From contig NW_026865446.1 in the NCBI RefSeq assembly GCF_026571515.1, positions 186,001 to 250,000 on the forward strand: 64,000 nt of DNA, given 5' to 3'. Positions 1 to 57,265 of the stretch are shown here, one piece after another. Each line of letters opens with the position of its first letter. Within the stretch, counting starts at the first letter, position 1. The stretch comes from Ruditapes philippinarum (Eukaryota). The notes beneath the pieces are model-generated. The model was not told the DNA's origin, did no database searches, and worked only from the letters and a program-made list of their open reading frames with translations. A program made the translations under genes and the position numbers.

Positions 1-2313
1 TAATGGCACAAATCAGTCACCATATCTTTTTTGCATCAGTAATTTGTTGAATGGGTTAATTTTTCCTTAAATTTAAATGTTTTCAAAGTTCATCATTAAT
101 TTTTATTGTCACTCTCAGATTAGAGGCCCTGTGCCTAAATTGTTTTAGTCATTTTTGGGATGTTCGTCAGTTTTAATTTAAAAGCGTTGAGTACATTAAT
201 CATTTAACATTCGTTTTATATGTTGCTTTTTATTAAACGGCGGGTTATATAACTATTATAACGACTTATATAACCAATACCACCAGACGGTAGAAATATA
301 ACCTGGATTTAGACAAATTGTTATTTGTGAATATGACCCTTATATCGGCTATAAAATCAAATGATAAAGAAACCTGTTCTTAAAATATTTTGATATATTT
401 TCCTAGGATTCTGTTTATTGTATAAAATAAAAATCATTTGAAAAGAATTAGTTGCATCACTTACTTTTAAGAATATATCCCTATATCCCATCTATCGGTT
501 TGTATCCTCTATATTTGTTGATTTACAAATTTAATTATAGCATATATGTCCATCTTTTTAAACTGGAGCAAGATAACTCTTATCTTCTAAATGAAAACCT
601 GTGTTCAACTTAAATGTGTCAAAAACCAGGTCCGATACTAGTGCCTATCAACTGAACACATACATACAATTACTTCACTCTAGACATACTTCGTCCTTGA
701 TTGGTCTTGGTTATCTGTCGCTGTTATAACGTTTATTGCAGTACAGTAGGAAGGGAAGCAGATCATCCCGTTTATACGCATGCTTGTAACAAACGCGACT
801 CATGCATTTTATGCGATTTATGCAGTTTTATGGTTAATGAGGACCCATTTGACAAAGAGGCCTTCGATGGCTGTCGTGTACGAATCCCGGACATGTCGCC
901 ATGTATGTCCTTTAAGAGTTTATTTTGAAGAACAAAGTGGTGATAACTTTATGCCAATGCAATGGTCACTTATAATGGATTATTAGACAATTATGTGTAT
1001 TGAGCTAAAAGTAGGTCAGTATATGGTACTCAATAATAATCTAAACGTACAGTAACCCGAAACAATATGAAAAAGGGGGTTTTCCCTTAAAAGGGTTGTT
1101 GGTGTCAAGGTAATGCCTGCTTCTCAAGCCGTAACACCGTGCTAGGGGCTTATACATCCTAGCATACCTCCTCGTCGTTTCTACCTGTTGTGAAGGCCAC
1201 CCCCTCGGCAACAGTCACGACATCGGCAGGTGGTCCGCGATACAAATTTCGGTTTTTCATTTTTCGTCGTTAAAAGTTCTTCAGATTTCTGCCCATTCTC
1301 TGCGTCTTCTCAACGACGTCCGCGTACCGAGGGGAAGAAAGATCACGTCGCAAAGTTTCGCGTTCTACCTTAATTGAAATCAAGGTTGATGGCCGGCAGC
1401 GTAAAATGCCGATATCTGCCAGCAAACGAGTAATCTCACAGTGATAAATGTTGATAATAAAATAAATCATTTAATACTGCTGAATATTTGCATATGCGCT
1501 GTCACTGAGCAATTTGCACATGCGCTGTTAAAATGTTAAAAATTGCCATTTTCTCCGATTATCATTCATTACAGACTATAATATTTATTGTGTTGAACGA
1601 TAGATGCGTAGACAATTGTTAAATTTTAGTATGGTGTCCAATGCACAAAGAGATATGAGAGTGTATGTCAATGTTTGCCAAAGCAGATATAGGACAGACA
1701 ATGTGGCTTTGAATCACAGTAATGTGACATGACATAGTCTCTGCACTCTCTCTCTGCCCCTCCACCACACCACCCCCATCAAACATTCCTCCCCTGTCGA
1801 CGTGTTCTTTTCATCAGAGCTTGCATAAATAACGTGGCTATTTGGGTGATTTCATTGGTCAAGTATTTCATAGTAAAATTGCCTTTTTTATATATTTTGA
1901 TTAAAGAGAGACTGAAATGGCCAAAAAGAAGGATAAAATTAGTAAGATTTTAACTCTCTCGATACATGACCGGAAAGTTGCAAAGCTTTTATTTATATGC
2001 ATTTAAGCGAAGCCAAACGGAAATGGCCGAGAAGTTACGAAGCGTGTTTTATCATTTTTCTTGATTTTTCGCGAAACTAGGTGGAGTGTGCCGCAAATTT
2101 GAGATATACTATAATATTGAAACATAAAAATAATAATAATTGTGCTTTCGTAAGCGAATATTGCATTTCCTGCAAGAGATAATATCTGTGTGGCAGCGGT
2201 ATAGTCTGGTTAGATAATCTATATTGGATTATTTCCATTTCTCTGGGAGGAACTTTATCTCAGTCGTTGAGTGATTCTTTTTTTGTATCACGGTTTATAT
2301 TTAAAGAGAAATA

Positions 2314-5300
2314 ATGAATGTATTAGTTGGACTTTGTTTATTTGTATTTAATGGTAAGTCAAACACTTACAGGAATAATTTGTTCATGTATTTTACAGTT
2401 TATGTTTCGAATTTAAATTTATTAGACGATTTGTATTGAAATGGATAGATAAACACAGACATTTACCTGCGGCCAAGTTGGACTGCATGAATAATAATAG
2501 TTTGAATTATCTTTTTCCTGTAGATCCACAAACTGAAACGGTTGATAAAGGTATATACTATCTTTGTCATTATAGTGACATTATACTATTATTTTCATTG
2601 TCAAGTGGAGCTAAAAACCGCCTCCGTGGTCGAGGGGTTAGAGTCGATGACTTCTAATCCAGTTACCTCTCTGGCGTGGGTTCGATCCCCGGGAGATGCT
2701 TTGGTAGTTTAGCGCGGAGGAAGGTAGTCTCGTACTGGTGTAACTCTCCAGGAACGATGGTTAGAAAACTACCCGCCTATATGACTGAAATACTGTTGGA
2801 AAAGGCGTAAAATGCAACAAACAATCAAGTGGACTCACTCTATGCCATGAAAATGCCATAATGTCCCTTAAAGGATTTTTTCTATCAGTCTTTTTTTAAT
2901 CATTTGCCTCTAGGTCGTGTATTTTACAGTTCTAATTTTAAGTTATTATTTTCTGTCTCTTAGAAATTAATAATGTCACTGTTAAGTTAATATTTACATA
3001 TATATATATATATTCAGCATCCTTTAGATTTTCATTTTGAAAATTAATCGAACACAATGTTTGAAAAGCAAATATAATTTTATTTTTGAAATGAGTTCAA
3101 AGTGATAAAAAGACCCCCTCCCCCGCCAAGAAAAAAGACACTGAATAGGCCCTGTAAATATGGTGAATTCATTGTTTTAAAAACACTTATATGTCATTTA
3201 TCTTGAGGACCTTGTAGATATATTAATTTATAATATAATACAATAAAAGGCGTAAATGACTTCTTATGATATTCCTAAATCGAGCATCGCCGTTCTTAAA
3301 AATCACTGACGATCGTATTGACTATGATTCAACAAGAGACTCCATGTAGCGTCTACTTGCTGCATTGATCAAGCCATGCATGCATTAAAAAATATCGAGG
3401 GAACAAGGAGGAAAACTGGCGCCATTTGGCTTCTAGTCAATTCTGGACATAGAACTCAATACTGCGAATAGAGAAACGATATGAATAGACTGATTTAGGC
3501 AATTTATCTTTTCTTGTCAAATTATGACATTTATTTGGAAGAAACTGTGATATACAAAACTACAGAGGGAAATAGATATTGATTTTCTATTCTTATGAAA
3601 ATTAAGTAATAATATATAAGCAACCGGTGCACGGCATTACGTCGAAAGACATTTTATAGAATTCGACAATTAAAGGAAAGGACAAATGGTCGAATACAAC
3701 AAAGTATAGAATGGAAATTTGATAGAAAAGAATATACTGTCGACACAACTGTACATATTGCTGAAAAACTGTAATGCTGTAAAATTTAGTTGCATAATCA
3801 GTTTGTTTTCTTGTAATTTTATGTTATTTCTTGAAGTGAAATAAACATATTAAAACACAAGGAATATTTTTATTAGGCATAATGCAGAACACAAAGCTTA
3901 GTCTTTCTATAGTCTTCCTGTAAAGTAAAGACCTCTTTAACAACGAAAGTATATTAATACGTAAAAAGGTATAGAGCTATATCTTAAAAGAAACAAATTA
4001 TAAAAAATAATAAAAGTACAATTATGTTGTTTTTATAATCTTAAAGATCTTGTTTCACAATTTTTTTATGGTTTTATATCATACATATAATGCTCAAATG
4101 GAGATTTATCAATATTGTTAGTTCAAAAAGCATTATTTGTAAAGATGTAACGACACTTTCATTTCATGCAGGTAATTAGAAATTTATCTTCTGTGAAGTC
4201 CCAGTCAAATTTTTCAATAAGAAATGAATGCATATATTTTAATAATTACATTTAATGTGGGCAAATATTTGCAGTACATGTTTTACAGGTTCTTCGATGT
4301 TTGAAAACTGTTTTAGAAGCATAATTGTATACATATTTGAAATTTCGCTTTAGTGTGGTTGCAACCTTAATAACAACATTCAGGATCTTTAAAGAGTTTT
4401 ATCATAGAACAACTAGTGTTATTTTACATATACGAGTATGAATATCGTATGTGAACAGAATTAAATGATCTCGAAAAAATATTATGCTGCTATCTTAAGA
4501 AAGATTTTTTACTGCTTAGAAACGATTTTGTGCATAAACATTTCTTTTAAATGAGATTACAAACACATCTTTTCTTATATAGATATTTTGTCAGTAGTAC
4601 TTTTACACAATTATTTTTTTTGAAGCCTATAACATTATAAACTTTACCGTCAGCTGTGTAAATATCGAGATTTCTAACTTTTTTTTCATAATAGAAAAAA
4701 ACAAACTTTGCTGAACCAACAAAAGATTGCAAAACATTTAAAGCGTTATATATATATATATAACTTCAGTGAAGCAACAGCTTATAGATCCTGTATGTTG
4801 TTGTTAAGAATGTAACAACACTTAAGTAAAATTGTATACATGTACATCATTATTCTCCTGAAACAATTTCCAAATATCCAAGAATATGTTGAGTATATAC
4901 TGCAAATATTTTTCGCATTATGAGTAATCATTAAAATCAATGCATTCATTATTTATTGAAAAAGTTGCCTAAGACTTTATCGAAAATAGATTTCTGATAA
5001 TCTTCCTTTATTTACATGAAATGTAAATTCGGTAATATCGTTGCAAATGCATTATGAACTTACAATATTGAGCATCAGATTTATAGTATAAAACTATAAA
5101 ACATTTGCGTTACAGGATCTTTAAGGTTAGAACTAATGTGTTTATAAATAGCAAACGTTGATGAACAAATAACTTTATATATACATATAACATCAGAACG
5201 TTACATATCTAAACCAAACCTTCATTGAATAAAAATATTAATATACGAATGTCTCTGTTTCAGTTCGTTATGCATCTTCCATACAGTGCTACGACTGCCT

Positions 5301-39272: not shown

Positions 39273-41309
39273 CTTTATTTGTTCGGTTAACTTTACATTA
39301 GGGCAAAACAACAGATAAAGGAAAACCCGAAATGTTTAAACAACGATTCATTATTATAAAGAAAATGAAATGCAAAATGTTGTTTGTTAAGTTTATCATT
39401 CTCTTTTTGGTTTGATAGTTTAATTTTATCTATATTTTGTTCTCTATTTCTTTTTCCCTTTCATTCTACATTACCTTAATTCTTTTTATTTTATTTTTTC
39501 ATTTTTGATTCTTTCCTTATGTTTTTCTGTGATTGTCTCTTTCTTTCTATCTTTCTATCTGTCTTCTCTGTTTTCTTTGTTTTTCTTTCTTAATTTATTC
39601 CTTTCTTTATTGTTCTTGTGTGTTATTTCTGTTTTTCTTGACCTTATGCAAGATCTAAAAATTACTTGATATTTTGATTGTTTTGCACACTTTTAAGTTT
39701 ATAACATCTTTATAAAATGAAATGTAACAAATTTATGTACGGGTAGATCTGTCGAACCTTTAAAAGGGTAGATTCGATAAAATGCCATTTAATAATATAT
39801 TGGTATTCACATAGTTGTAGATATTTTATAAAAATGGAATGTTAAGTGTATGTTTGCAATATTTGAAAAGTTAATGTGTATATGGTTAAAATGTTTAGTC
39901 AGAACCTCTTACCGTTCATACCAAAAGTGTTAATACATCACGTGCATCTTTTTTACTAAGTTTGTTATGTCTTAGATGTTTATCTGTTACCTAGGTAAGC
40001 ACAAGAGACCATGATCTTAATTAATACTGCAATAAACAAAAACCCAAACCCCACTATTTCAACAAGTTCATTTAAAATACTTTCTTTTAGACCTACATTA
40101 AAGGTTGCATAAATCTGATTAATGTATAAAATAAAATAAACTCAGGATTCTTAAGTTACTGTTTTATTAAGATATCTTTATTTGTATAGTTTATACGGTG
40201 TGCATAAGAGTACTTAAGTGTTTAGACAGAGTGCTTAATATAAAACTTTGAACGTGCTATTTATGATTAATTCTAAACGTTCTTTTTTCTCTTGCACTTT
40301 AGTATGTTTGATTGGTGAATGCGCTTTTTATTGGTATTTTGTTTTGTTTTGATTGGTTTTGTTCAATGAGGTAAAATATAAATCAAAATAATTAGAAACC
40401 ACTTTGACTAGATATTAACATGATTTTTTTTGGTTTTGTATATTGAATTGTCAATTCGATTTATGATTTAATTACAAATGCAAAATAAACTCAACACAAG
40501 TTCGAACTAGACCTTTGAGTTTTTTTTTCTGATTTTTCTTTCTTTCTCGCTTTCTTTTTAAAGAACAATCAGGATAATTTCATATTAATATGGACAATAA
40601 AGAGAATATGTACAACGGTCAAAAACAGTTTTGTAATAAAACTTCTCTTTTACACATTGTGCATTTGATTCAAGCTACTCCCTTATCATAAAAATTGAAT
40701 CAAAGTTGTGTGTTTTATTTGCCCTTTCATAGCGTGGTCGAATGTATGATCGGCATTAAAAAAGTAATTGTCGTAGAATTTAGTTAAATTGTGGGATGTG
40801 ATACTAATAATTGATCAAATCATACATTTCCTTTATGTGCAATTTAAAATGATATCTACAAAAACACAAGGCATTCGAACTTTCAGTTTTGGTGAGAGTG
40901 TAGCTCATTCTTTTAAGATGATTAAATAACGACTTTAACTCTTACACTGTTGGATGTGCCATAATTTTACTATTTATGTGTATACTAATAAGATATGCCA
41001 TCAACAATTTCCACTTCTTTTATTCTGCAAAACGTTGCGGGTCTAGTTGAACTATTCAGTATTAACCCTTAATTTAGTTTTACTTTTTTCATGCATACCT
41101 GTTTGCATTTTTAGAAACTTTTTTTTGTAAGCAATGTTCGCACATTTATTACTGAGCTTGTTTCCTATTTGCATGCTTGTATTGATATTATAAAAATGGT
41201 TGTTAACGAATAAATTCAGAATTTACCTAGTTTACCATTTTTTTACGCTTGAGTGATTATTGTAGAAATGGTTTGTAAACAAACGTTCCGTATTTTGTTT
41301 ATTTTTATG

Positions 41310-42350
41310 TATAGGTTAGAGTGCATATTGGGTGTTCTTCGTAAATAAGAAAGCTAAAAAGGAGCGGAGCTTGCGGAGCGACTGTAGCTTTCTTATTTAC
41401 GAAGAACATCCAATATGCACTCTAACCGGCTTAGTGCTCCGCCTATTTTTTTCCGCCTAACACACTGCGTGACGTCACACGATAGCCTAAATGTGTATAA
41501 CCATATCTGGAAGAGGTAGCGGTACACATTTTCGGGTCACGTGTTTTGCATAGCTAATTCCCCGCATTCTGTCTAGGTAAATCAGACAATATCACGGTGC
41601 ATATCCATATCGGTACCCTCTTTGCGAAATATTCTCAAACGGTACCCTCTTTGAACATGCACAGGTCATTCACTGCTTAAAACAAACGAGCGATGGATAA
41701 CAATGCAGTAAAGTTTCATTGTAATTATTATAAAGAAAGGAGGTATGACACGTAGAAAAGATGTATACCACGGAACACTAGAATGCATCATACATATTTA
41801 TTATGTTCATATACATATCATCTTCGGACAAATGGCAGTATATTGTCAAAAATAAATATAAAATTAATAAAAACACCCTACTTTCGGTTTTGCAGCGGCA
41901 CGGGCTGTAATATTTACATAAAAACTGGGACATCGTAAGTCCCAGATAAAAAGTAAGAAATATTACATACATACTTTGTTGGAATAAAGTGAACTTTTTA
42001 TTTGGAAATTATAAAATGATACTGGTTCCGTAAGTCATAAAACATTTTTACTGTTATTTTGCCTGTTTTCATTTCAATGAACCTCTTTTTCTAATTCTAT
42101 GCCGTAGTGACGATATACATGTGCGTGTACGGAAAAAAACATGATGCATAAATATTGATTAGTAGGAGTAAACTTCAAGATCTCTGCACATGCGTATTTT
42201 TCACTTTAGCGCTCTTCGAAACTTAGCTCCGCCCACTTGCGTTTTATAATATAAAACGTCCAGTTTATATAAAAACTGTTCTATTAAGATTTGAAACCTG
42301 AAAATTTGTAAAATCCTCGTCGGTGATTGGCTTAAAAAAATTGGCGAGCA
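41310..42350. mobile_element. Insertion of about 1 kb specific to duplication unit A, starting with a long palindrome
   Basis: Palindrome ggttagagtgcatattgg...ccaatatgcactctaacc (41314-41427). The flanks are contiguous in unit B at about 50730. Ends are approximate. Confidence 0.6.
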
Positions 42351-42529
42351 CTAAGTTTGCTTGTAGACAGCATAAGTGTATCAATATGCCGCAAAACTCG
42401 GCGTGGTGTTCTTCCATATTTTAAGATAAAGTAAACAAAATGAAATAAATTGTTCGCTGATCAAAAATTGTATTTAAGAAACATTAAAATCAATCGTTCA
42501 TTATCATTGCTAAAAGCTGTACAATTTAT

Positions 42530-42710
42530 GACTAAGGACTGAGATTAAAATAACTCTTATGCGATCTCTCCAAAGGCTGAGTTTAAATATGTCCCGCAAG
42601 ACTGAGATAAAATATCGGTAGGGTCTGGGATCAAAATAGCCATGGTCTGAGATCGAATACTTCTTATAAGGTCCGAGATCAAATATATGTAGGGCCTGAA
42701 ATCACATATT
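42530..42710. repeat. Degenerate minisatellite, unit about 22-24 bp, in the 3' flank (paralogous copy at about 50905-51100)
   Basis: Recurrent (g/a)g(a/t)c(t/c)gagat(c/t)aaata motif. Confidence 0.6.
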
Positions 42711-42986
42711 CAAAAACAAATCAACACAAATCAACGTTGTTCACAAAATCTTTATATCAGTACAATTACATATAAAGTAAATTGACCGTCATAAAGAATG
42801 TTTCATATGTCTCTTATATAAATCTTAACAATAAATTAAAGCGTAAACAAAACAGTTTATGGAGCCGTATTTTGCAAAATACCTACATTTTTAACTTTGA
42901 TATATATTTTGTCAAAAACTAAAAGTAATTTAAGTTTTCAGATTTAGAAATATACATTTCATATGGGGATTTTACTCTGATCCATT

Positions 42987-45900
42987 TCACGTGACTGTGT
43001 GAGTACAGGCTTGGGTACACCGTGCGGAAAAGTCGGAAGTGTGACAGAATGATGCGTTACAAAACATATCAAGTCCTCCATTGTTATTGAAATACTTGAA
43101 ATCTTTGTACAAAAATCTTGTTTCGTGGGTAGACTGTGAGATGATATGTGTGTTTCTGTCAACTTCGCATCTACAACAAAATAGAACTATTGGCTTATTA
43201 TAATAAGTTTACCTCTGTGAGTTCTCGATCTAAAACCAAGTAATTATAGAATGCATTTAATTAATAAAATGAGTTTACTTTGCATACGATAGAGGCCGAA
43301 AAAGGCCCCTTCCCATTAAATAAAAAACGTTGAATATTTTTTAATTATCTATATTTTTACCAATCAGCTGAAATATATATGAAGAAAGCACTATAAACAT
43401 TTTATTTTTTCCAGAATGAAAAAGGTGAATGTTTCAATACATTTTGTTAAATCTTCCAAGTGTTCTATTGCAATTTGTGATAAATTCCCCAATATTAAAA
43501 GCATTGGCTGTTCCGATAAAAAGTAAATAGAAAATCACTAAAAATAAAGTACATGTTTTACAAATTAATTTTAATCAACAACGGTTAGTAACGGGGAATC
43601 GATGAATCCCCTTACTTTCGTTATTATCAAATCTTTGAGAGTGAAGGATTACAAGTCAAACAAATTAAAGCATTTCTTTTCTTTTACATACCACTGCAAT
43701 TAAACATTTAGATTAAACCTATTTTGAAATGGTATCAATTTCAACTTTTTGCTTTTGGCGACCTTTGTGATTCTTATTTTATCTGGAACTGCCTAACTAA
43801 TTTTTTTATATTACAATTTTTCCTTACCCTTGCTTTATCAACGTGACATCCATAGCTGATGTGTTTGTTCCTGATGGCCTCGTGTAACACGTGTCTAGTA
43901 TCATTTTTGTATCCCAATCAGGCAATGTAGTGTATACTTTAACGAATACATTTTCTCCAAGTACCACCTTCAGGGGATTTCCGGATATACGGTGTAAAAA
44001 GTTAACGTCACTAAAATACGTCATAGATAATTGGTAGTAACTTGTAAACGAGGCATTATGTACTTCCGGAATATGTTCCACGTGCGATGACGTTACTTCA
44101 TTGGCATTGACGTCACATTCCACAATAAAAGTCCACTCGTGTTTCAAAACCACATATGGACGAATAGGATCAAATACAATGTAGAATAGGTTGTTTTTGT
44201 AAATATTCATGTCTGTATTAAACTGAAATAGAATTGTGTGTATAGTATAAAACTTGTAACAAGCTGTTTGACGGTATTTTGTTCAAATGTGAATTGGGTA
44301 CAAATGTGTAATGAAAAGAGTAAGAGATATCTACTTTTGATGTACAGAATAGTTATAATAAGTAAGATTAAAAAAAATACTTGGCTTCTTAACCCATTAC
44401 GTCATATACACGCCTTTTAACGCCTTTTTCACCCCCCCCCTTTTTTTGTTGTCTCAAATGATGAAAAAATGCCTTATTTAGGCCCCAAACACTTGTTTTT
44501 GTTTGAGAAATGTTGTTTAAAAAGTGACCTCTTTTTCGGCGTGGCCCCCCAACCAAAAGATACATCAGGGGGTTGCCAGAAGGGGGATGTGCCCCCTTCT
44601 GTTTGGGGGGTTTAAAGGGGGGCGGAGTCCCCCTCATCGCCAAGAAAATTTTAGACTTGACCCCAGATTGATCATAAGGTAACGTGTAACCAACGCTGAA
44701 AAGCATTTGACTCTATCTCAATCCATTTAGAAGTTGCAGCACTTTGAAATCAATTTTGATGGAAAAAAATCAACGCAAAATAGTGATTTTTGGCAATTTT
44801 GAGATGTCCCCTCGTTGCCATGGTAACAGAAAATTTAAGCCTGCGCATGTTGTTGCAAGGGCAATGGTCCAGTCAACATTTGTGCAAAGTTTGATTAGTG
44901 TTGAAGCAGTTTTTATAGTATTATAGCAATTTGAACTTGTAACGGGAGACTTTTTCAATGAAAACAGCCATTTTTCACAAAATGCTCATGAAGTAATGGG
45001 TTAATGAAAAAAAAATCTACAAAACAACAATTTTTCTTCAAATTTATATGACAGGCCATCTTTAAACATGAAAAAACGCGATTTAGGGTAATTTCAAGTA
45101 TTTTCATCATTTTCTGTTAAACAATTACGTCATACACACGCCTTTTAACGCCTTTTTCACCCCCCCCCCTTTTTGTTGTCTCAAATGATGGAAAAATGCC
45201 TTATTTAGGCCCCAAACACTTGTTTTTGTTTGAGAAATGTTGTTAAAAAAGTGACCTCTTTTTCGGCGCGGCCCCCCAACCGAAAGATACATCAGGGGGT
45301 TGCCAGAAGGGGGATGTGCCCCCCTTCTGTTTGGGGGGTTTAAAGGGGGGCAAAGTCCACCTCATCGCCAAGAAAATTTTGGACTTGTGAGAGGCTGTAA
45401 ATGACCCCAGATTAATCATAAGGTAACGTGTAACCAACGCTGAAAAGCATTTGACTCTATCTCAATCCATTGAGAAGTTACAGCACTTTGAAAACAATTT
45501 TGGTGGAAAAAATCAACGCAAAATAGTGATTTTTGGCAATTTTGAGATGTCCCCTCGTTGCCATGGTAACAGAAAATTTAAGCCTGAGCATGTTGTTGCA
45601 AGGGCAATGGTCCAGTCAACAATTGTGCCAAGTTTGATTAGTGTTGAGGCAGTTTTTATAGTATTATAGCAATTTGAACTTGTAACGGGTGACTTTTCAA
45701 TGAAAACAGCCATTTTTTCACAAAATGCTCATGAAGTAATGGGTTAAACGATATAAAAGTAATCAAAAATGTTGTAGTAGATTCTACACAAAAATGATTA
45801 CACTGTAGACTAGATGACTGTCTTGTGAGAATGCCGGACTTTTTGTTTAGGTTCTTACTTTTTCAGAGGTGGAACACGTGTTGAAGCTTTGTTGAAAAAG

Positions 45901-48900
45901 CAAAAAGGAGTTATCAAGATGCCCTTGACATTTGCCCGAGCCTAAAATAAGATCAGTTGGTCTGACTGTATGGTACATCATCTGCAGGAGACTCATGTTG
46001 ACAGATATATTCCAGTGCGATGCTGTACACTTGACCTCTATAGCATCTTCAAGTCGCAGATGACTTCCTGAAAAAAGATTATGATTCAAATGAAGCTCAG
46101 AAATGTCAGTGATGTTCATAATGTGTTTAATTGTTAAAATTCTTGTTTCAATGTAAAGACGATATATTACGCATTAATATAGTGTTTGTTGTATGACCGT
46201 TTTATAAATATTAATGAACTTATAGCTTATTTCAGGGTATTTCTGGTTCATTTCTAAATTGTTTGATAATAAGAGTATACGTTTAATAATATTATCATAT
46301 TTCTACAAAAATATATTTTAACACTATTATTGTTCATATTTAATTCCTTACTACAATGATTTTTGTAGACCATTTTGTATAATAAAATATTTCATACTTA
46401 GTAGAACTACATTGGCTAATTAAAAATACAAAATATTTCATACTTAGTAGAACTACATTGGCTAATTAAAAATACAAAANNNNNNNNNNNNNNNNNNNNN
46501 NNNNNNNNNNNNNNNNNNNNNNNNNNNNNNNNNNNNNNNNNNNNNNNNNNNNNNNNNNNNNNNNNNNNNNNNNNNNNNNNNNNNNNNNNNNNNNNNNNNN
46601 NNNNNNNNNNNNNNNNNNNNNNNNNNNNNNNNNNNNNNNNNNNNNNNNNNNNNNNNNNNNNNNNNNNNNNNNNNNNNNNNNNNNNNNNNNNNNNNNNNNN
46701 NNNNNNNTATATTAATGTTGTTGTTATTGTTGTTGTTGTTGTTTATTTGTTTGTTTATTTGTTTGTTTGCGATTTTTGGGCCAATTGGTTTCTTGTTGCT
46801 GCTGTTGTTATTTCTACTGTTTGTCTCAGATGAAGTATAGTTAGAATTTATAAATACGTTACACTGTTGCTGAAATTTGTTTGAAAACAACGATTTCAAA
46901 ACAATAGTTTTCAACTTACTCACGGTCGTTGTTTCTGGTGGACACTGGCAACCGTATTGTATAGCAAAGTCTGGACAAAATGCCGTCGGAGAATTTGGAT
47001 AGGGTTGACATATAAGCCCGTTTACATGATTGCACACTGCTGTATATTGAACAACTGAATTGTTCTGTATACCACTGATGGGCTCCCACTTTTCATCCCT
47101 GCACTGTGCCGCAATTACTTGACCGTTAGGACAAATCTTATTTAAGACACTTACTGATTGATGTTCATAATTTGATCTGAAAATAAAGTTAACATTCTCT
47201 TAATTTTTAGTACTAGACCGTGTTCAGTCAATGAAATGAATTAGGTAAAGAAAAAAATCATGATGTTGCGGATGTGAGATTCATTTGATTGCACTATTAT
47301 TCTTATAAAAAGGCAATGTTAACAAGCAAAACATATATTTCAATCAACTGTGGTTTGGATTATTTTTCAAATTTCTGAATTCGTTTCTAACAATATTTTG
47401 TAAGTTGTGAAATTTTATTCCTGTTAATGGTCTTTTATGTTTTACTCGAGGTTAAAACTATTCTATTAATGAACAAAACAAATATTATGGAAAGTGAAAA
47501 AAAATGTTCTCATGAATTAATTCATATGTAGTTATTCTCCAAAAAAGAAGAGCTTTCAGATTACGGTGTTTCTCCTGTATATACTTCAACGTCATAAGAA
47601 TAAAAATATATCAATTTATTTTAAAGATGAATATTTTTATCAATAAATATATAAGTACAACATGAATATATATATTTTCTTGACTTGAATCAATCAATGT
47701 AATATTTTATACTAAGAGGATATTTTTTCGTTTTATCATATTTCACGAAAAACGAAAAAATAACCCGTATATTTAATTTCATTATCAAAGAAAAATGGTT
47801 ATGAACTCCCTTGCCTGCTACGCAACTGCAATTATACAGCGCGCAGAAATATAAGTATCGTCTTGTTTTGCACGCGATATTTAGCGCTAGATTGTGACGT
47901 CACGTAAACAAATTTTTAAACGTCTGTACAGCGTTAATGTCTGATTTAAAGATATTGGTGTTCGGATTTATTTTCTTAGTTAGACCATTTTCTATCATTC
48001 TACATAGTTTTCAAAACAAAATTCAACAAAAAGTTGTTTGTATTTATCAGATTTTTAAAACAAAATGGCCAAAGAAGTCCCTTAAAATAAATATGAGTTT
48101 TGACTCCGCCCACTTTCATATTTATATTTCATATTTATTTTTAAAAAATATGAAATACATTTGACTGATATAGCACCATATTTCATAGGTAAAATTAAAT
48201 AAATTAACTTATTTCTGATGAACATATATTTATCACTGAGTGCAGTACGACTTGAAGAGCACCGAATACTTCCTTTGATCAGCAAAAACAAAAGAAATAA
48301 TTCATAAACGGTTTAAGTTTTTAAATGGAAGCCCTTTTTGTCACTTATATTTATAATAACTTGGGTTATATTGATGTAGCAAAGCGTCAGGTAAGTTTGT
48401 TCGAGTTGGCTTAAACATAGAAAAAAATATTTCCTTACATATTTACTCGGTTATCTTTAAAATATCGAAACTGTTGTTTTTTTAAAGACTTGACAATAAT
48501 TATTTTATCGCAGAATAATGCTACAATGTCATTATGCAATGTACACAAAAGATAAGTACCGACCCGTTTCTCAATCCAACAGATTCGTTGAACCATGTTG
48601 AGTCCCAGCAAATTTTCTGACCTAAAATAAAGAATAGCAACGAGAATTAAAGCAATTTCGAGCACGCTTTATTTACTTTTAAATGTTAAAGACGGCACCA
48701 AAAGTACTGTAGTACAAAGCCGAAGAAATAAGTAAAGTTTTGACGCAAACTTAAAAAAATATATATATATCTAACTCTAAGCCCATTTACCTTTCTGCTT
48801 GTCTCTGCGAGTTAATACTAAAAATTTGATGATTCCAAAATCCGCTTTTGGATTCTGGTTTCAACTGACTTGTTCAACATATCAATTAATGATAAAAAAC

Positions 48901-49591
48901 AAACATTCATACCAATGCTAAATGTGTTGCAACAGTTTTATGTTCAGGTATACAAAACTGTATGATAAATGCCAATTATGAAAGAAAAACGGTTACTCAA
49001 AACCTTGATGTTTTATTGATTATAATTTTAACATTATTTTTATTTATTATAATTTTAACATTATAACATAAATTACAATCTCAGATTACTATGTAAGGTA
49101 TAATTATTGTAATATTGATTGCGAGGCCATTTAACCTCTCGATATAACGTCTTACAATGCCTCTTTACTTTAAATACCACTATATCTTTATTGTCATTCA
49201 CATGTAACTATTTCTTTGTTATTTTTAAGAGTATTTATAATGTAAAAAAAAAACCAATTTTAAATGGACTTTGCAAAAACCGCCCGAATGGCATATATCC
49301 GAGCGAACATATTATCCTAAGGATAACAGGGTAATATATGTGTCTTAATTTCAATTAATCCTCAAATCAAATATATATCTATTTTTTAAAGTTACTATGA
49401 CACCTAAGTTTAAAAATCACTTAGCTGTGCAAGGATTTTACGGATATGAATACATAGTTTTAACGTTGTACATGTGACAACTTGTTGTTAACGTTAAAAA
49501 ATTAGCTTATGGTAGACTATAGTCATCTCTTACCATTTACATCAACAATAAATAATAATCCAAATATAAATAATAAATTATTTACTTCCAT
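42987..49591 (-). CDS. Secreted CysD/WxxW-like + zona pellucida (ZP) module protein, copy A (386 aa, 6 exons)
   Basis: Exons 49591-49534, 48621-48564, 47176-46920, 46067-45859, 44222-43828 and 43170-42987 (phases 1,2,1,0,2) splice without stops. Order: signal peptide; CWDSTWFN...NGLIC...CPDFAIQYGCQC; ZP-N (IEVKCTASHWNISV...CQG...FNTCST...IYKNNL...FIVEC); ZP-C (V.LGENVFVKV...MILDTCYTRP...LIKQGCEVD...TRF...FCNASFCHTSDFSARCTQACTHTVT*). Confidence 0.9.
44393..45743. mobile_element. piggyBac-type (CCC..GGG, TTAA) non-autonomous element present as a head-to-tail dimer in intron 4 of ZP copy A
   Basis: ttaa|cccattacgtcat ... atgaagtaatggg|ttaa. Two near-identical units of about 610-620 bp (44393-45000, 45121-45743). 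The paralogous intron at about 52755-52775 is an empty site. Confidence 0.8.
46480..46707. other. Assembly gap (N) in intron 3 of ZP copy A
   Basis: N run, preceded by an exact tandem duplication of about 46 bp. Confidence 1.
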
Positions 49592-51357
49592 CGTTATTAA
49601 ACTTACATCAAGACTGGTTTGAAATATTCATTTCCTATCTAATACCATATGGTGTGTTGAGGCCATGGAAGTAGAAATTCAAATTATGATTTCTGAAAAA
49701 CATCCAGACGACCTCGCCTCATGTGAATATATATAAATGTACTTTGGTTTGTGTAAGAAGAAGTAGCATTAACTGAGGGGGAGGGGTTAACTAACATATT
49801 TTACACAATGTAGAACGCTTTTAAATAAATGTCTATAGATTACTGATATTTTAATACAATTTATTTTAGAAACCCTTACATGTCTTCTTGCCTCATTACA
49901 TGATGCTACACAGATACAAGGCTGGTTCAAAGGTATGATTATTAGATTTGTTAAGTGGCTCTCTTTGTTTGAATTAATCTTTCAGATAACGACTTTAAGT
50001 GTCCATCCACTCTACTTGTCACAAGAGATGCCTACTTATTATTCTAATCTAGGATTACATACTCAGGTTGAATCCATTATTTGTACTAATTTATTACATG
50101 CTAGTCTACAGTATTAATGTCAGTATAGACTAACACCGTGCGAAATGGCCCTTAAACCTACTTTAAAATAGAGTTCCTATGCTTAAGGTGCAATTGTTCA
50201 AAGAAAAATGAAAATTCCTGACTATTAAGAAATTGTTATAGGGGTCTAATTCATACTTGCACAGTTATCCTCTGGACAAGGGAATATACAGACCATGTAA
50301 TCATAAACAAGCCCATTTATATATCCTCCGTTTTACTTCGAAAAGGCTGGGTACAAAAATAGCATCCTCATGCATTATTATTTGATTACATACAGTTATA
50401 TTACGGTTTTACCAATCAACAATACTCTTGGTTATTTTTCTACTGCAAAACGTAAGGTGTCCAGTTGAAATGTTTATACAGTATGAACCTTATCTCAATG
50501 TTATTTATTACATGCATACATGTTTGCATTTGTAGAAACGTTTTTGTAAGCGATGATCACACGTTAATTACTCAGATTGTTTCCTGTATTGCATGCTTGC
50601 ATTGATATTATAAATATGGTAATCAATATGGTAATTAATGAACAAATTTAGAATTTACCTAGTTTACCATTTTTAACGCTTGAGTGATTATTGCAGAAAT
50701 GGTTTGTAAACAAAAACGTCCCGCATTTTCTTTTCATGTTTGCTTGTATGCAGCAAATGTAGGCATGATGTTCTTCCATTTCTATATATCTTAAGATACA
50801 GTCAACAAAATGAAATTACATTTTTTGCTGATCAAAAAGTGTATCTAAGAAACACTGAAATCATTATCATTGCTAAAAGCTCTGAAAGGAAAGATAATGA
50901 ATATAACACTAAGGACTGAGATTAAAACATCTCTAATGCAATCTCTCCAAAGACTGATATCAAATAAGTCCCCAAAGTCTGAGATAAAATATCTGTAGGG
51001 TCAGGGCTAAATATATCCAAGGTCCGAGATCAAATATTTATTAGGTCCGATATCAAATATCTGCAGGTCCTGAGATAGAATATGACCAAGGACTGAGATA
51101 TTTAAAAACAAATCTACACAAATCAACGTTCAAAAAATCTTTATATCAGTACAGTTACATATAAAGTAATTTAACCCTCATAAATAATGTTCCAAAGGTC
51201 TCTTATATAAATCTTAACAATAGATTAAAGCGTAAACAAATCAGTTTATGGAGCCGTATTTTGCAAATTACCTACATTTTTAACTTTGATATATATTAAT
51301 TTAAGTTTTCAGATTTAGAAATATACATTTCAAATGGCGATTTTACTCTGATCCATT

Positions 51358-54300
51358 TCACGATACTGTGTGTTTACAGGCTTGGGTACACCGTGCGGAA
51401 AAGTCGGAAGTGTGACAGAATGTTGCGTTACAGAATATGTCAAGTCCTCCATTGTTGTTGAAATACTTGAAATCTTTGTACACAAATCTTGTCTCGTGGG
51501 TAGACTGTGAGATGATATGTGTGTTTCTGTCAACTTCGCATCTAGAACAAAATAGAGCTATGGGTTATTATAAAGTAAGTTTACCTAGTGAGATCTTGAT
51601 CTAAAACCAAGTAATAATAGAGTGCATTTAATGAATAAAGTGAGTTTCTTTTGTAAAAGATTGAGGCCGAAAAAGGCCCTTTCCCATTAAAAAAACGTTG
51701 AATATTTTTTAATTATTTTTACTTTTACTAATCAGCTGAAATATATATGAAAAAAAGCACTAAAAACATTTTATTATTTCCAGAATGAAAAGGTGAATGT
51801 TTCAATAAATTTTGTTAAATCTTCAAAGTATTCTATTAGAATTTGTGATAATTTCCCCAATATTAAAAGCATTGGCTGTTCCGATAAAAAGTAAATAAAA
51901 AATCACTAAAACAACGTACATGTTTTACAAATTAATTTTAATCAACAACGGTTAGTAACGGGGAATCGATGAATCTCCTTACTTTCGTTATTATCAAATC
52001 TTTGAGAGTGAAGGAGTACAAGTCAAACAAATTAAAGTATTTCTTTTCTTTTACATACCACTGCAATTAAACATTTAGATTAAACCTATTCTGAAATGGT
52101 ATCAATTTCAACGTTTTGCTTTTGGCGACCTTTGTGATTCTTATTTTATCTGGAACTGCCTAACTAATTTTTTTATATTACAATTTTTCCTTACCCTTGC
52201 TTTATCAACGTGACATCCATAGCTGATGTGTTTGTTCCTGATGGCCTCGTGTAACACGTGTCTAGTATCATTTTTGTATCCCAATCAGGCAATGTAGTGT
52301 ATACTTTAACGAATACATTTTCTCCAAGTACCACCTTCAGGGGATTTCCGGATATACGGTGTAAAAAGTTAACGTCATTATAATACGTCATAGTTAATCG
52401 GTAGTGACTTGTAAACGAGGCATTATGTACTTCCGTAATATGTTCCACGTGCGATGACGTTACTTCATTGGCATTGACGTCACATTCTACATTAAAAGTC
52501 CACTCGTGTTTCAGAACCACATATGGACGAACAGGGTCGAAAACAATGTAGAATAGGTTGTTTTTGTAAATATTCATGTCCGTATTAAACTGAAATAGAA
52601 TTGTAGGTATAAAGAAAACCGTTTTGTTACAAAACTTGTTATTCGCTATTTGTTAACTTTTTTACCAAATGTGAAAAGGGTAAATAAAAAAAGTGTGAGA
52701 GATCTACTTTGTTGTACAAAATATTTATAATGAGATATATTCTCATAAAATTCATTGCTTCTCAAATGATATAAATATAATCAAATAAGTTGTAGCAGAT
52801 TCTACATTAACGTGATAACACTGTTAACAATGGAAGGTGATTATGGAGTGAGAATGCTGAACTTTCCGTTGATGTGCTTACTTTTTCAGAGGTGGAACAG
52901 GTGTTGAAGCTTTGTTGAAAAAGCAAAATGGAGTTATCAAGATGACCTTGACATTTCTCCGAGCCTAAAAATATATCGGTTGGTTTGACTGAATGGTACT
53001 TCATCTGCAAGCGACTCATGTTGACAGATATATTCCAGTGTGATGCTGTACACTTGACCTCTATAGCATCTTCAAGAAGAAGATGACTTCCTGCAAAAAG
53101 ATTATGATTCAAATTAGGCTCAGATATGTCTGTGGTATTCATAATGTCTTAAATTATTAAAATTCTTGTTTCAATGTAAAAAGGATATATAAAGCATAAA
53201 TATAGCGTTTTTTGTATGAACTTTTAATGAATATTTATTAACTTATAGCTTACTTTAGGGTTTTTCTGATTCATCCCTCCAAAATGTATCTAAATTGTTT
53301 GAAAATAAGAGTATGTTTCAGAATATTAATATATTTCTACACAAGAAAAATATGTTATATTTGAAAATGCTTCTTGGTCATGTTAAATAACGTTTTACAA
53401 TAATTCTTGTAGTCAATTTTGATAAATAATATCACTCACATTGGCTTAAAGAAATACACAGTCATAAACAATCATTAGATTTTTATTTTATTTATTCATT
53501 TTAATTATTCATCTATATATTATTATTGTTATTTTAATTGTTGTTTATTTATTTGTTTGTTTGGGTTGTTGTTGTTGCCTCTGATATTTCTACTATTTGT
53601 CTCAGATGAAATACAGTAAGAACTCATTAACACGTTACTCTGTTTCTGAAAAAAATGTGAAAAAACAACGATTTCAGGACTAAATTACAACTTACCGACG
53701 GTCGATGTTATTGGTGGACACCGGCAACCGTATCTAATAGCATAGTCTAGACAAGTTGCGTACGGAATATGTGGATATGGATGACAGATAAGTCCGTTTA
53801 TATGATCACAAACAACATAAATATGATTATTTGTATCATTGAAATTGACATTAAAAGGCTCTCCCTTAATATCCTTACACTGTGCAGCTATTACTGATCC
53901 TTGAGTGCAAATCTTATCTAATACACTTACTGGTTGATGTTCATAATTTGATCTGAAAAGAAAGGTTTGGTATTTACAATCTGTTGTTCATCCAAAGTAA
54001 TTAAATCAACAACAAAGAAAACAAATGATGATGCGGCAGTGATATTATGTATTCTTATAAATGTGAAAAGTCACAAAGACAAACGTATATTTCAATTGAT
54101 TACTTCTGTAAATTTCTGAACTCGTTTCTAGCATCATTTTGTAAGCAGTGGAGATATTCTGTTGTTATTTGTGTCCTTTTAAACGAGCTTAAAAGTTTAA
54201 AACATTTAAAATGCATGACATTTTTGAAAAATGTTTGTTTAAATCCGTGCACTTTTCATTTATTTATTTATTTTTATGTTGCTTTTCAAATATGTATATA

Positions 54301-57265
54301 CAGATATATAAAAAAAAATTATAACGTGAACGGGCTAGCTGTTTTATACATATTTTTTCTTATGGCTACTTTGCCAGTTGATTTGTTACAAATGATTAAA
54401 ATGATTTAATCAAGTTTAATTAACTAGTGTTTGTAACAGTAACGTTAAATTTGATAAGTTCTTATTGAACTTGATATAAAATTAAGGTGTCACTTCTTAG
54501 GCTATTTAATATATATATTATATATATCAACCACATGGATATCAAGTTTTCAATACTTTAGTATTTACAATTACACTCAACGCAATGTTAAATTGATGCA
54601 ATTGATATACTTCGTAAATAGTGTGAGATTCCAAGTAATTTATCTAACATATTTATTATTTCTGTGATATTGAGACTGCAGAAGCTGGGCAGAGACTGAC
54701 TGTCCTTTGAGTTTTTGCGTGTATTCATACTCGCCACCAGTTGCCCATATGGGCGAGTCCTCCATAAGAATATTAGTCATTTTAGATTTTGGAGGATAGT
54801 GCAATCACAAATAAAGAAAGACGCCCCAATTCAAGAAGCATTTCCCGGTTCTTTAGCATGCTAAGTGTTTAAGCACCCGTACATGGGACCTCGATTCAAA
54901 TTCTCGTCCGTAAGACTGAATAGTAATTTTAGTTTGCCAGCCCGGGAATCGAACCCACAATGTCGGGATTACAAGTCTCGCGCTCTAACCGATTGACCTA
55001 TGCGGGCTGGTTCTGTCCACAGCTTTGAGCTCTATTTATACCTAATAATGTAGTTATATTTAATAATCGTTTTCTGAATTTGAGGAAATCAAGCATCCAA
55101 CAGGTACTGATATTGGGTCGAATATTGGTTAGGATGGTATTGAGTTCGAATGATTTTAAGGACAAATTTTTATATTTTATATCAAATAATAAAAATTTGT
55201 CAGTTTTATCAAATAATTGTTATGAATACATTTTCTAATCTAATACATTATTATTTATATATTTTTTTATTTATCTATAAAACATTCAACTATCCATTTA
55301 AATACAAGATTAAGTATATGTTTACAATAATAACTAACCGGTAATTTAGGTTTAAAACCACTACATATCATAATAGAATCATTATAGAATCTAGGCAGAA
55401 GAGAACAATCGTAACACAAGCAATGTAAGATTTTAATGGAATCCCTTTTTTGTCTTATGATATATTTATTATCACAAAGGTTATAGTGATGAAGCAAAGC
55501 GTCATGTAAGTTGTACAATTTGGCTTAAACATAGAAACAGTTATTTTTCTATATATTCCTCGGTCACCATTCAAAGGGCTGAACATCTTTTAATAGACTT
55601 GACAATTATATCTAAATATAGTAGTTATACATTGTCAATGTGTAATGTAGACACATGATAGGTACCTACCCATTTCTCAATGTAACAGATTCGTTGTACC
55701 ATTTTGAGTCCCAACAAATTTTCTGACCTAAAATAAAAAGAGGATTTAAACAAATTTCAGTTTGATTAATGAACTTAAGTCAACGTGTTAAATTTCCTCT
55801 TATCCTTGAATACCAGTTTACCTAAATTTTCATTCACATGAAAAGATCTTTTTCGAACTGACTAGTCTGACTTGCATGTCGGATCGTAAAGCACTGAAAT
55901 GGAACCAAAAGGCGTACTTGTGAGACAGTTAAATAAATGAGAGTTGTAAAATATAAATTGTGTTGTCAGAGCGCAAAAATGTTGCTGCCTAATTGTGAAT
56001 ATGTTAAGCCGACACAAGGAGATATTTTTCTTCTCCTTGACTTGATATTTTTTTCACTGTGGGAAATTTCCCTTATATAACTAGGTGTCATAGACACTTT
56101 GATCTACAAAGGAGATTTTTGCTACTCCATAATATTGTCACTGTGGGGAGATTCCCCTAAAATAACTGGGTTTCACAGAGTCACAGTCACTTGATAATCA
56201 TGTTATAAGATTACCTTAGTCATTCTGTGGATGCTGCTATTCAAGCAAAGGCAAAGAGTAATAATAATGTAAAAGAAAAACAAACAATTTCAAATACACA
56301 AAGTAATGCTGGACAAATTTCCAGTTTGCCTTTACAAAAAAAGGCCAAATGGCATATATCCGTAATCCTATGTGTCACAGAGTGAGAAAAATGTGCAGCC
56401 TGACCGGGACTCGAACCCGGGACCCTCGGAATACCGTACCGCGGCTCTACCGACTGAGCTATCCGGCCGCTTACACATCTTCTCCCCTTAATAGTGAACA
56501 GTTCTGAACCATTACATACACCCCTGCTATATTGAAATTCGTCCTCGAATTTCACAGAGTTACAGAGCAATTTAAATAAAACTTTGAGCTATATCAGTCA
56601 CGGCCCCCGTTAGGCGCCAAATGTCACAGGGTGAGAAAAATGTGCAGCCTGACCGGGACTCGAACCCGGGACCCTCGGAATACCGTCCCGCCGCTCTACC
56701 GACTGAGCTTTCCGGCCACTTACACATTTTCTCCCGTAATAAGTGAACAGTTCTGAACCGTGATCGAAATTCAAAAATGAAGTGAATGAGGCCCGTCAAC
56801 GTGTTACAGGTCAAATGAAGTTATTAGTATGAAGTTGAATAATGATATGAATGATTGAAAAAGAGACGATAGGGGAATGATATAGAGTATGGGTATGAAT
56901 TACAGAGTATCCTAACAAAGACAAAATGACCCTGTGACATATGGATTAAGGTGTCATAGTCACTTTGAAAATAAATGACAACATTTTTGGATTAATTAAA
57001 ATTAAGACGGATATATTGGCCCTGTTGGCCATTGGATTACGGATATATGCCATTTGGCCGTTTTTTTTTTTGTAAAGGCAAATTGATTTGCTATGCAAAG
57101 ATTTTCCGGGTGTGATATTAGTGGACATAACTCTAAAGTTTTGCATGTGCGAAAACCTGTTAATGGCATTAAAAAGTAGCTAATCGTATTTTTCTACAGT
57201 CATTTCTTACCATGTACACCAGTGAATAATAATCCAAATATTAATAAGAAATAACTAAATTCCAT
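51358..57265 (-). CDS. Secreted CysD/WxxW-like + ZP module protein, copy B (385 aa, 6 exons)
   Basis: Exons 57265-57211, 55727-55670, 53952-53696, 53090-52882, 52589-52195 and 51541-51358 have the same phases as copy A, and exons 2-6 have the same lengths. MEFSYFLLIFGLLFTGVHGQKICWDSKWYNESV...ARCTQACKHTVS*. Confidence 0.9.
54650..55010 (-). mobile_element. tRNA-derived SINE (family 3, possibly Deu-domain type) in intron 2 of ZP copy B
   Basis: Minus-strand head with A box TAGGTCAATCGG and B box GGTTCGATTCC. The gggacctcgattcaaattctcgtccgtaagac block resembles the Deu central domain. The 3' boundary is approximate. Confidence 0.65.
56396..56468 (-). pseudogene. tRNA-Lys-like sequence inside the 3' LTR (not a canonical tRNA gene)
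   Basis: GGCCGGATAGCTCAGTCGGTAGAGC...GGGTCCCGGGTTCGAGTCCCGGTCAGGCTG. D and T arms are perfect, the anticodon and acceptor stems have mismatches, and U33 is absent. Confidence 0.75.
56645..56717 (-). pseudogene. tRNA-Lys-like sequence inside the 5' LTR (not a canonical tRNA gene)
   Basis: Three substitutions relative to 56396-56468. The B box is intact and the A box has T8>A. Confidence 0.75.

Follow-up and report, generated by a model that had tools for sequence, protein, structure and literature searches.

In the window, a stretch of 64,000 nucleotides from the clam Ruditapes philippinarum, we found an insertion that is a Helenus-type TRIM, gene-less and tRNA-bearing, whose front end comes from a full-size Gypsy element. 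The locus, a Helenus copy with a Gypsy LTR start inside one 4-bp TSD, probably formed before integration, in a Gypsy particle likely holding both RNAs. This hybrid nature is the informative part of the window copy, and was overlooked in a sequence-only reading of the same DNA, which had described a miniature LTR retrotransposon with a tRNA-Lys-like Pol III promoter in each LTR.

Architecture of the window insertion

The insertion spans positions 56373-56939 (567 bp, minus strand) and lies between two copies of TATG, at 56369-56372 and 56940-56943. The sequence-only reading had ended the element at 56763 with the second TATG directly behind; the letters after 56763 are TCGA. The direct repeats that it described are present (56373-56510 and 56622-56759, 93% identical over 138 nt, spacing 249) and belong to a minus-strand LTR pair with a 105-bp spacer, identical at 130 of 144 positions in register. 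Compared with the commonest letter among 82 copies, the 3' Helenus LTR (144 bp, 56373-56516) has 4 departures and the 5' one (LTR positions 3-144, 56622-56763) has 8.

Half of each LTR is, as had been claimed, a 73-nt tRNA-like sequence, at 56396-56468 in the 3' LTR (LTR positions 49-121, with A and B boxes) and at 56645-56717 in the 5' LTR. Both are recognized by Rfam RF00005, at 44.5 and 44.6 bits for a gathering score of 29, with a weak anticodon arm. The label "tRNA-Lys-like" turned out not to be specific: 48 of 73 columns agree with host tRNA-Lys(CTT), and 49 of 74 with host tRNA-Ile(AAT), and ARAGORN called one copy tRNA-Pro(CGG). Just after the tRNA-like part comes a run of five T, at 56387-56391 in the 3' LTR, where it is Pol III terminator-like, and at 56636-56640 in the 5' LTR. 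The proposed polypurine tract (PPT, 56517-56528) and PBS were also found. The PBS (56602-56619) starts 2 nt beyond the LTR and is complementary to the 3' end of host tRNA-Lys, slightly mutated relative to the family form. A hairpin with an AGGA loop closed by CG/CG is predicted close to the PPT, at 56534-56553. The internal region (105 bp here, 106 bp in the family) leaves no room for any LTR-element protein.

The 5' Helenus LTR is without its first two bases, and adjoins 176 bp (56764-56939) of the 5' part of a 507-bp LTR from a Gypsy family named A below, positions 1-172 of which match at 99%. At the junction, the microhomology GTCACG (56759-56764) corresponds both to positions 174-179 of the Gypsy A LTR and to positions 2-7 of the Helenus LTR, its first base being changed here. 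The two outer LTRs are therefore not mutual copies: the 5' one is a Gypsy A LTR, the 3' one a Helenus LTR. An 11-bp match of 56929-56939 to the Helenus LTR end was considered as an inverted Helenus end and rejected, as it is the start of the Gypsy A LTR. Departures amount to 2 of 172 in the Gypsy piece and 12 of 286 in the Helenus LTRs, so that the Gypsy piece looks younger, a difference that is not significant (p=0.09).

This Helenus-Gypsy A junction has a single occurrence in the assembly (G000). A short-read contig from run X2 spans it with 0 differences, and run X1, from another sample, likewise extends with 0 differences from the left flank into the element; either run may be the assembly's source sample. 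The TSD of the window copy rests on one 4-mer match, because no empty allele was found among the paralogues of the host repeat and the read contigs checked, and because these paralogues do not reproduce the left flank.

The insertion sits within a fold-back region, in which a low-copy host repeat forms two inverted arms, each about 50 bp long (56322-56372 and 57030-57085); the paralogues of this repeat (L330, L331 and window 49275-49405) are arranged differently. Elsewhere in the window, ARAGORN calls a tRNA-Thr(TGT) at 54934-55008 (minus strand), with no T-run after it and probably a tRNA-derived repeat, and 41018-48631 and 50436-55737 form a multi-kb segmental or tandem duplication with blocks 70-93% identical.

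The Helenus family in the clam genome

A genome search with the insertion returned 4,095 candidates, and the 40 scored matched query positions 177-567 at about 95%. The genome-wide count of copies that the sequence-only reading had proposed gave at least 1,155 Helenus LTR starts, by an exact 18-mer that never occurs in the reversed control, so the window element is not a chance arrangement. Such counts hold by exact pattern, which overlooks diverged copies. The 82 loci behind the first 100 of the 1,155 matches listed served as our unselected sample.

Family copies have a 144-bp LTR (TGTCAC..GTGACA), a 106-bp internal region and a second 144-bp LTR, 394 bp in total. Among the 82 loci, 34 are pure Helenus with both ends, with a single LTR in 15, two LTRs in 16 and three in 3. 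Around these 34, we found an exact 4-bp TSD in 27 cases, one with a single mismatch in 5 and none in 2 (control 9/1122); 5-6 bp TSDs were absent. The Helenus-type class suggested from the window alone is thus right, with LTR-PBS-PPT-LTR copies, solo LTRs, arrays, 4-bp TSDs and tRNA-Lys priming. SINE behaviour, the alternative, does not fit the fixed TG..CA ends and the 4-bp TSDs, which surround solo LTRs too. A DNA-transposon-like spread, with fixed differences between 5' and 3' LTRs, was likewise rejected, the LTR pairs of the top copies being 99.3% identical (median).

Conservation over 82 LTRs is 0.98 in the A-box/D-arm, 0.965 in the T-arm and 0.945 in the anticodon arm. The A and B boxes are intact, and the T5 run after the tRNA-like part is as long as that after a host tRNA-Lys gene. 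By analogy with the class, the LTR boxes may drive Pol III transcription, and a transcript starting in the 5' LTR would read through the first T5 run to include the PBS. In four unstranded RNA-seq runs (131 to 5,152 reads), no discrete starts or ends were seen, and 65-91% of reads ran into unrelated flanks.

Host tRNA-Lys has two 3' ends (68 matches), those of tRNA-Lys(CTT) and of the intron-bearing tRNA-Lys(TTT), and the two Helenus PBS forms are complementary to them. By hand count of the first 100 listed of 239 junctions, 36 are of the CTT form, 56 of the TTT form and 8 mixed. Eleven of 18 typable arrays mix PBS types (4 of 22 arrays were not typable), as expected if each unit was primed separately. 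Host tRNA-Lys(TTT) genes, with an intron of about 19 nt, lie in tandem clusters (L282, L284, L285).

Several variants were seen along the way. A Helenus subfamily (L088, L081, L326 and others) has an alternative, less purine-pure PPT, and both PPT types can occur within one array. The long arrays at L205 and L227 are older and satellite-like; their units have diverged and carry insertions in the internal region. In an inverted Gypsy B/Helenus array (L193:2034-4096, G000:C7059), three Helenus LTRs share the same 12 A-to-G among 14 changes, on the sense strand at LTR positions 12-79, and a fourth LTR has 6 of 7; the background is 67 A-to-G among about 1,375 changes over 195 Helenus LTRs. This pattern looks like ADAR-type RNA editing that would have been fixed by reverse transcription, then copied in both orientations.

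Hybrids with six Gypsy families

Among the unselected loci, 11 of 82 (about one in eight) are joined to a Gypsy sequence within 15 bp, from families A-E, two of them being mutual duplicates. Three more A-Helenus hybrids, each with one TSD, were found around other Gypsy A LTRs. Two pattern sets were then enriched for hybrids by design: the Ile PBS followed by the Helenus internal region (9 matches, control 0) was behind a Gypsy LTR in 9 of 9 cases, and the Lys PBS with the Helenus internal region behind a non-Helenus end (15 matches) in 14. For comparison, 239 Lys-PBS Helenus internal regions follow a Helenus-type end. Our tally comes to about 40 distinct hybrid places.

The foreign LTRs of the hybrids belong to six families, A to F, for each of which LTR pairs flanking Gypsy pol domains were located. 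The extra 176 bp of the window copy gave 84 candidates, 40 of them scored, many lying as pairs 8-9 kb apart. Family A has 507-bp LTRs, gag (PNMA), RT, RNaseH and integrase domains, a tRNA-Ile PBS and 4-bp TSDs. Families B-F contain RT, RNaseH and integrase domains too (Pfam), with about 70-78% identity to A in the main RT/RNaseH segments; the gag (PNMA) match was examined in A-D. All six are Ty3/Gypsy elements by their RT-RNaseH-integrase order between LTRs, their PBS and their PPT. Families A, B and D have a tRNA-Ile primer, and C, E and F a tRNA-Lys primer. The tRNA-Lys-primed partner that had been predicted was too narrow an idea: donors of both primer types occur, and family A, fused to Helenus in the window, is tRNA-Ile-primed. 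At L291 (G000:C34), a Helenus LTR is followed by a short Lys-type PBS and by sequence outside the identified families, which may represent a seventh donor. At L041 (G000:C9729:33200-42400), two Gypsy A 5' LTRs 8,035 bp apart have identical flanks and represent a tandem duplication rather than an LTR pair.

Most commonly, hybrids consist of a helper LTR joined to Helenus, with the Gypsy LTR mostly on the 5' side. Other forms are a helper LTR with a two-unit Helenus array (L136, L267, L271, L274), Helenus within a helper leader (L189, L105), Helenus at the 5' end of a helper sequence (L192, L194, L337) and a whole helper followed by a Helenus array (L128/L057). A pattern for reciprocal hybrids gave 4 matches, one of which is real (L337). 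A search for end-to-end junctions gave 20 matches against 9 in its control; most of the loci fetched were unrelated. In addition, inverted Helenus compounds, with two 5' or two 3' ends outermost and one 4-bp TSD, occur at L074/L012, L017, L207, L217 and L230; the tail-to-tail junction of L074 retains both 2-nt end extensions.

An exact 4-bp TSD surrounds 21 of the 23 hybrids with both outer ends in one locus (20 in the hand-listed set, plus L293 once read at its true outer end), against 16/506 in a cross-pair control. The TSDs also match in 2 of 3 further hybrids split between loci. Misses are L269 (1 mismatch), L270 (damaged end) and L289/L320 (no match), and more than 10 hybrids with a truncated or unseen end were left out of the scoring.

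A copy of the primer tRNA at hybrid junctions

The commonest order in hybrids is donor LTR, donor-type spacer, PBS, Helenus internal region and Helenus LTR. During reverse transcription, plus-strand strong-stop DNA consists of the LTR and a copy of the last 18 nt of the primer, and normally anneals to the PBS of the minus strand. Family B offers the clearest test of such a product, since the match between its genomic PBS and the tRNA covers only about 15 nt. The genomic PBS was found at 8 of 21 junctions with a B-type end and an Ile PBS, a set enriched for hybrids, and the complete 18-nt complement of tRNA-Ile at 11; the other 2 have a different form. Of the 11 full complements, 8 are joined to Helenus and 3 to other places. 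Ordinary B copies have the genomic form, and B hybrids the full tRNA complement, which is found at L179 even though the Helenus G run is absent there. A patchwork Ile/Lys PBS was seen at L246. In family A hybrids, the G run of the PBS could come from Helenus instead of the tRNA.

Outside Helenus, a Gypsy B LTR with a tRNA-Ile copy is joined to non-cognate places at L173, L187 and L264, the last with about 40 nt of tRNA read-through. Judging from these junctions, aberrant plus-strand transfer seems common in family B.

Candidate recognition signals

A hairpin is predicted in all seven families (Helenus and A-F), its loop beginning 28-30 nt before the 3' LTR, so that the window hairpin has a place and form common to Gypsy A-F. 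The loop contains GG and is closed by CG/CG; between Helenus and the helpers, the stem differs by paired changes, with one mismatch in A. Pairs were counted by anchoring on the loop, since loop lengths differ and the MAFFT alignment is out of register. In B-F, each internal region (7.4-8.0 kb) contains a single strict motif, always at the PPT-proximal place. Folding of the whole internal region is modestly better than that of shuffles (z -1.6 and -2.4). Visual inspection of published Helenus sequences of oyster and nemertean origin showed similar hairpins whose stems differ.

The LTRs have TGTC/TGTT starts in common, and 11 bp at the 3' end of Helenus match the 5' end of A. Helenus has the word GACGAA near its PBS, as do 5 of the 6 Gypsy leaders. 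A derivation of the Helenus internal region from the Gypsy F leader was rejected, as the match is seen in one F copy only (L318). The PPT-proximal hairpin, together with the TGTC..GACA-like ends, is perhaps a candidate uptake signal; the hairpin could instead have a role in reverse transcription rather than packaging.

Origin of the hybrids

All the evidence on how the hybrids arose consists of genomic fossils, from which we infer co-packaging. Any of the six Gypsy families would take up Helenus RNA, perhaps through the shared hairpin and end motifs. Helper plus-strand strong-stop DNA, i.e. the LTR and its tRNA copy, would then sometimes anneal to the Helenus minus strand via the PBS, even between different primer types, given the G run that ends both PBS. 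Helper integrase would finally insert the hybrid DNA. A single TSD is the criterion that, in the available text of a study on grasses, places such compounds before integration (PMC1950507).

The route of the window copy itself is ambiguous, because the clean LTR-PBS junction of other hybrids is absent. A helper LTR with a two-unit Helenus array may later have lost about 440 bp between two GTCACG motifs, or the plus strand may have switched template directly at GTCACG. We give these two routes roughly even odds; both need a shared particle.

Alternatively, one integrase complex could have held the ends of two separate cDNAs, one of Gypsy and one of Helenus, host repair joining the free inner ends. 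This would account for the single TSDs round the inverted compounds and for the L074 junction with both end extensions, and could account for mid-LTR junctions such as that of the window copy. Most hybrids, however, join exactly at the donor LTR end, spacer and PBS, which corresponds to the strong-stop product and not to random repair, and we find this origin unlikely. It would still need both elements in one integration complex, and the conclusion on partners therefore stands.

It is quite improbable that the hybrids go back to two independent insertions, of Gypsy and of Helenus, into one spot or beside it (nested or by re-use of the same 4-mer), which deletions then fused. TRIMs are reported as hotspots for further insertions, in the accessible part of PMC6934838; in other A copies (L111, L120, L125), deletions start or stop close to LTR position 178-180, and the microhomology at the window junction fits a deletion after integration. 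Yet more than 20 cases would each have required that a single 4-mer be hit twice or that two deletions be exact. According to the same grass study, as far as its text is available (PMC1950507), separate insertions that recombine should not retain a flanking TSD, whereas most hybrids scored have one. Such fusions would also leave unexplained the tRNA-copy PBS and the register of LTR end to PBS, and no Helenus end abutting a Gypsy start was seen in the 15 loci fetched of the 20 junction-search matches. Mis-joined repeats in the assembly are a most improbable source: it is fragmented (15,874 contigs) and contains duplicated loci (L133/L134, L213/L214), but TSDs match across the join and the X1 and X2 reads described above agree with it.

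Formation before integration, in a shared particle, leads to a broader proposal, for which we see about an equal chance of being right or wrong. Helenus would be a generalist parasite of a whole clade of Gypsy elements, admitted by its hairpin and end motifs to the particles of at least six families, whatever their primer tRNA, where intermolecular plus-strand transfer would build hybrids and tandem arrays. Hybrids would then be fossil barcodes naming the helpers of any TRIM, Cassandra included.

Relation to known systems

Helenus (TRIMp3) was defined by Kojima in 2024 as a TRIM of less than 1 kb with two LTRs and no coding region, a tRNA-derived sequence with A and B boxes in each LTR, a tRNA PBS, a PPT and, in animals, a 4-bp TSD; Pol III transcription from the LTR is proposed and not validated in the accessible text of that article (PMC10886601). 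Judged on sequence, this clam family has every feature of the definition. It resembles the bivalve Lys group (Helenus-3_CGi, -3_CVi, -4_SaGl), with a tRNA-like part in both LTRs, a TT spacer, a Lys PBS, a PPT, TGTCAC..GTGACA ends, a 4-bp TSD and a size of 394 bp; the published consensuses of this group, in the part available, show the hairpin motif (PMC10886601). Among the listed families, those of the oyster Lys group are closest. Four diagnostic words of the window family are absent from the available supplement text of PMC10886601, where line breaks could hide matches, so the family is likely unlisted there. The same article bases its link between Gypsy and animal Helenus on similar PBS and on the length of the TSD, and the words "chimer" and "hairpin" do not occur in its accessible text; in contrast, the partners described here are physically fused, several in number, and half of them use another primer.

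In the available text, Sabot and Schulman (2007, PMC1950507) describe complex insertions in grasses formed by template switching, as compounds in one TSD, and Drost and Sanchez (2019, PMC6894440) describe recombination linked to reverse transcription within LTR "clans". The clam hybrids are similar in being compounds inside one TSD that point to intermolecular transfer during reverse transcription. Unlike those, which as far as these texts go join members of one family through homologous LTRs, they have unrelated outer LTRs, with homology limited to the PBS or a few bases. For non-autonomous LTR elements of sugar beet, the use of any available machinery without sequence similarity was proposed and TRIM-TRIM chimeras were reported (PMC13570524); there, in the accessible text, the proposal comes from absent partners and its basis is called unresolved, whereas here the hybrids name the helpers.

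The Helenus class was already known, as were template-switch compounds and LTR exchange among related families, and the generalist idea had been put forward without direct evidence. In soybean, Du et al. (2010) reportedly found LTR swapping in a related pair of autonomous and non-autonomous elements, through homologous LTRs and with propagating lineages. The clam case would share with it the exchange of LTR sequence between helper and parasite, but involves six helpers, and its hybrids, whose LTRs are not identical, appear to be one-off products. Our search of the literature, which did not extend to subscription journals, Repbase entries and bioRxiv supplements, found no published TRIM-autonomous hybrids of this kind, and neither frequent TRIM fusion with several helpers of unrelated LTRs across primer types nor a shared hairpin in print.

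The available text of PMC10886601 and of the 2026 sugar beet survey treats two questions as open: the identity of the autonomous elements that mobilize Pol III-type TRIMs, and the way in which these are recognized without LTR homology. The hybrids supply named, testable helper-parasite pairs and a candidate cis signal, and other genomes can be screened for single TSDs that enclose a foreign LTR followed by the internal region of a TRIM. Matching by PBS type can overlook real partners, and LTR-pair dating and tRNA annotation fail on hybrid copies. Finally, our results suggest that TRIM arrays may form during reverse transcription, and not only by unequal crossover.
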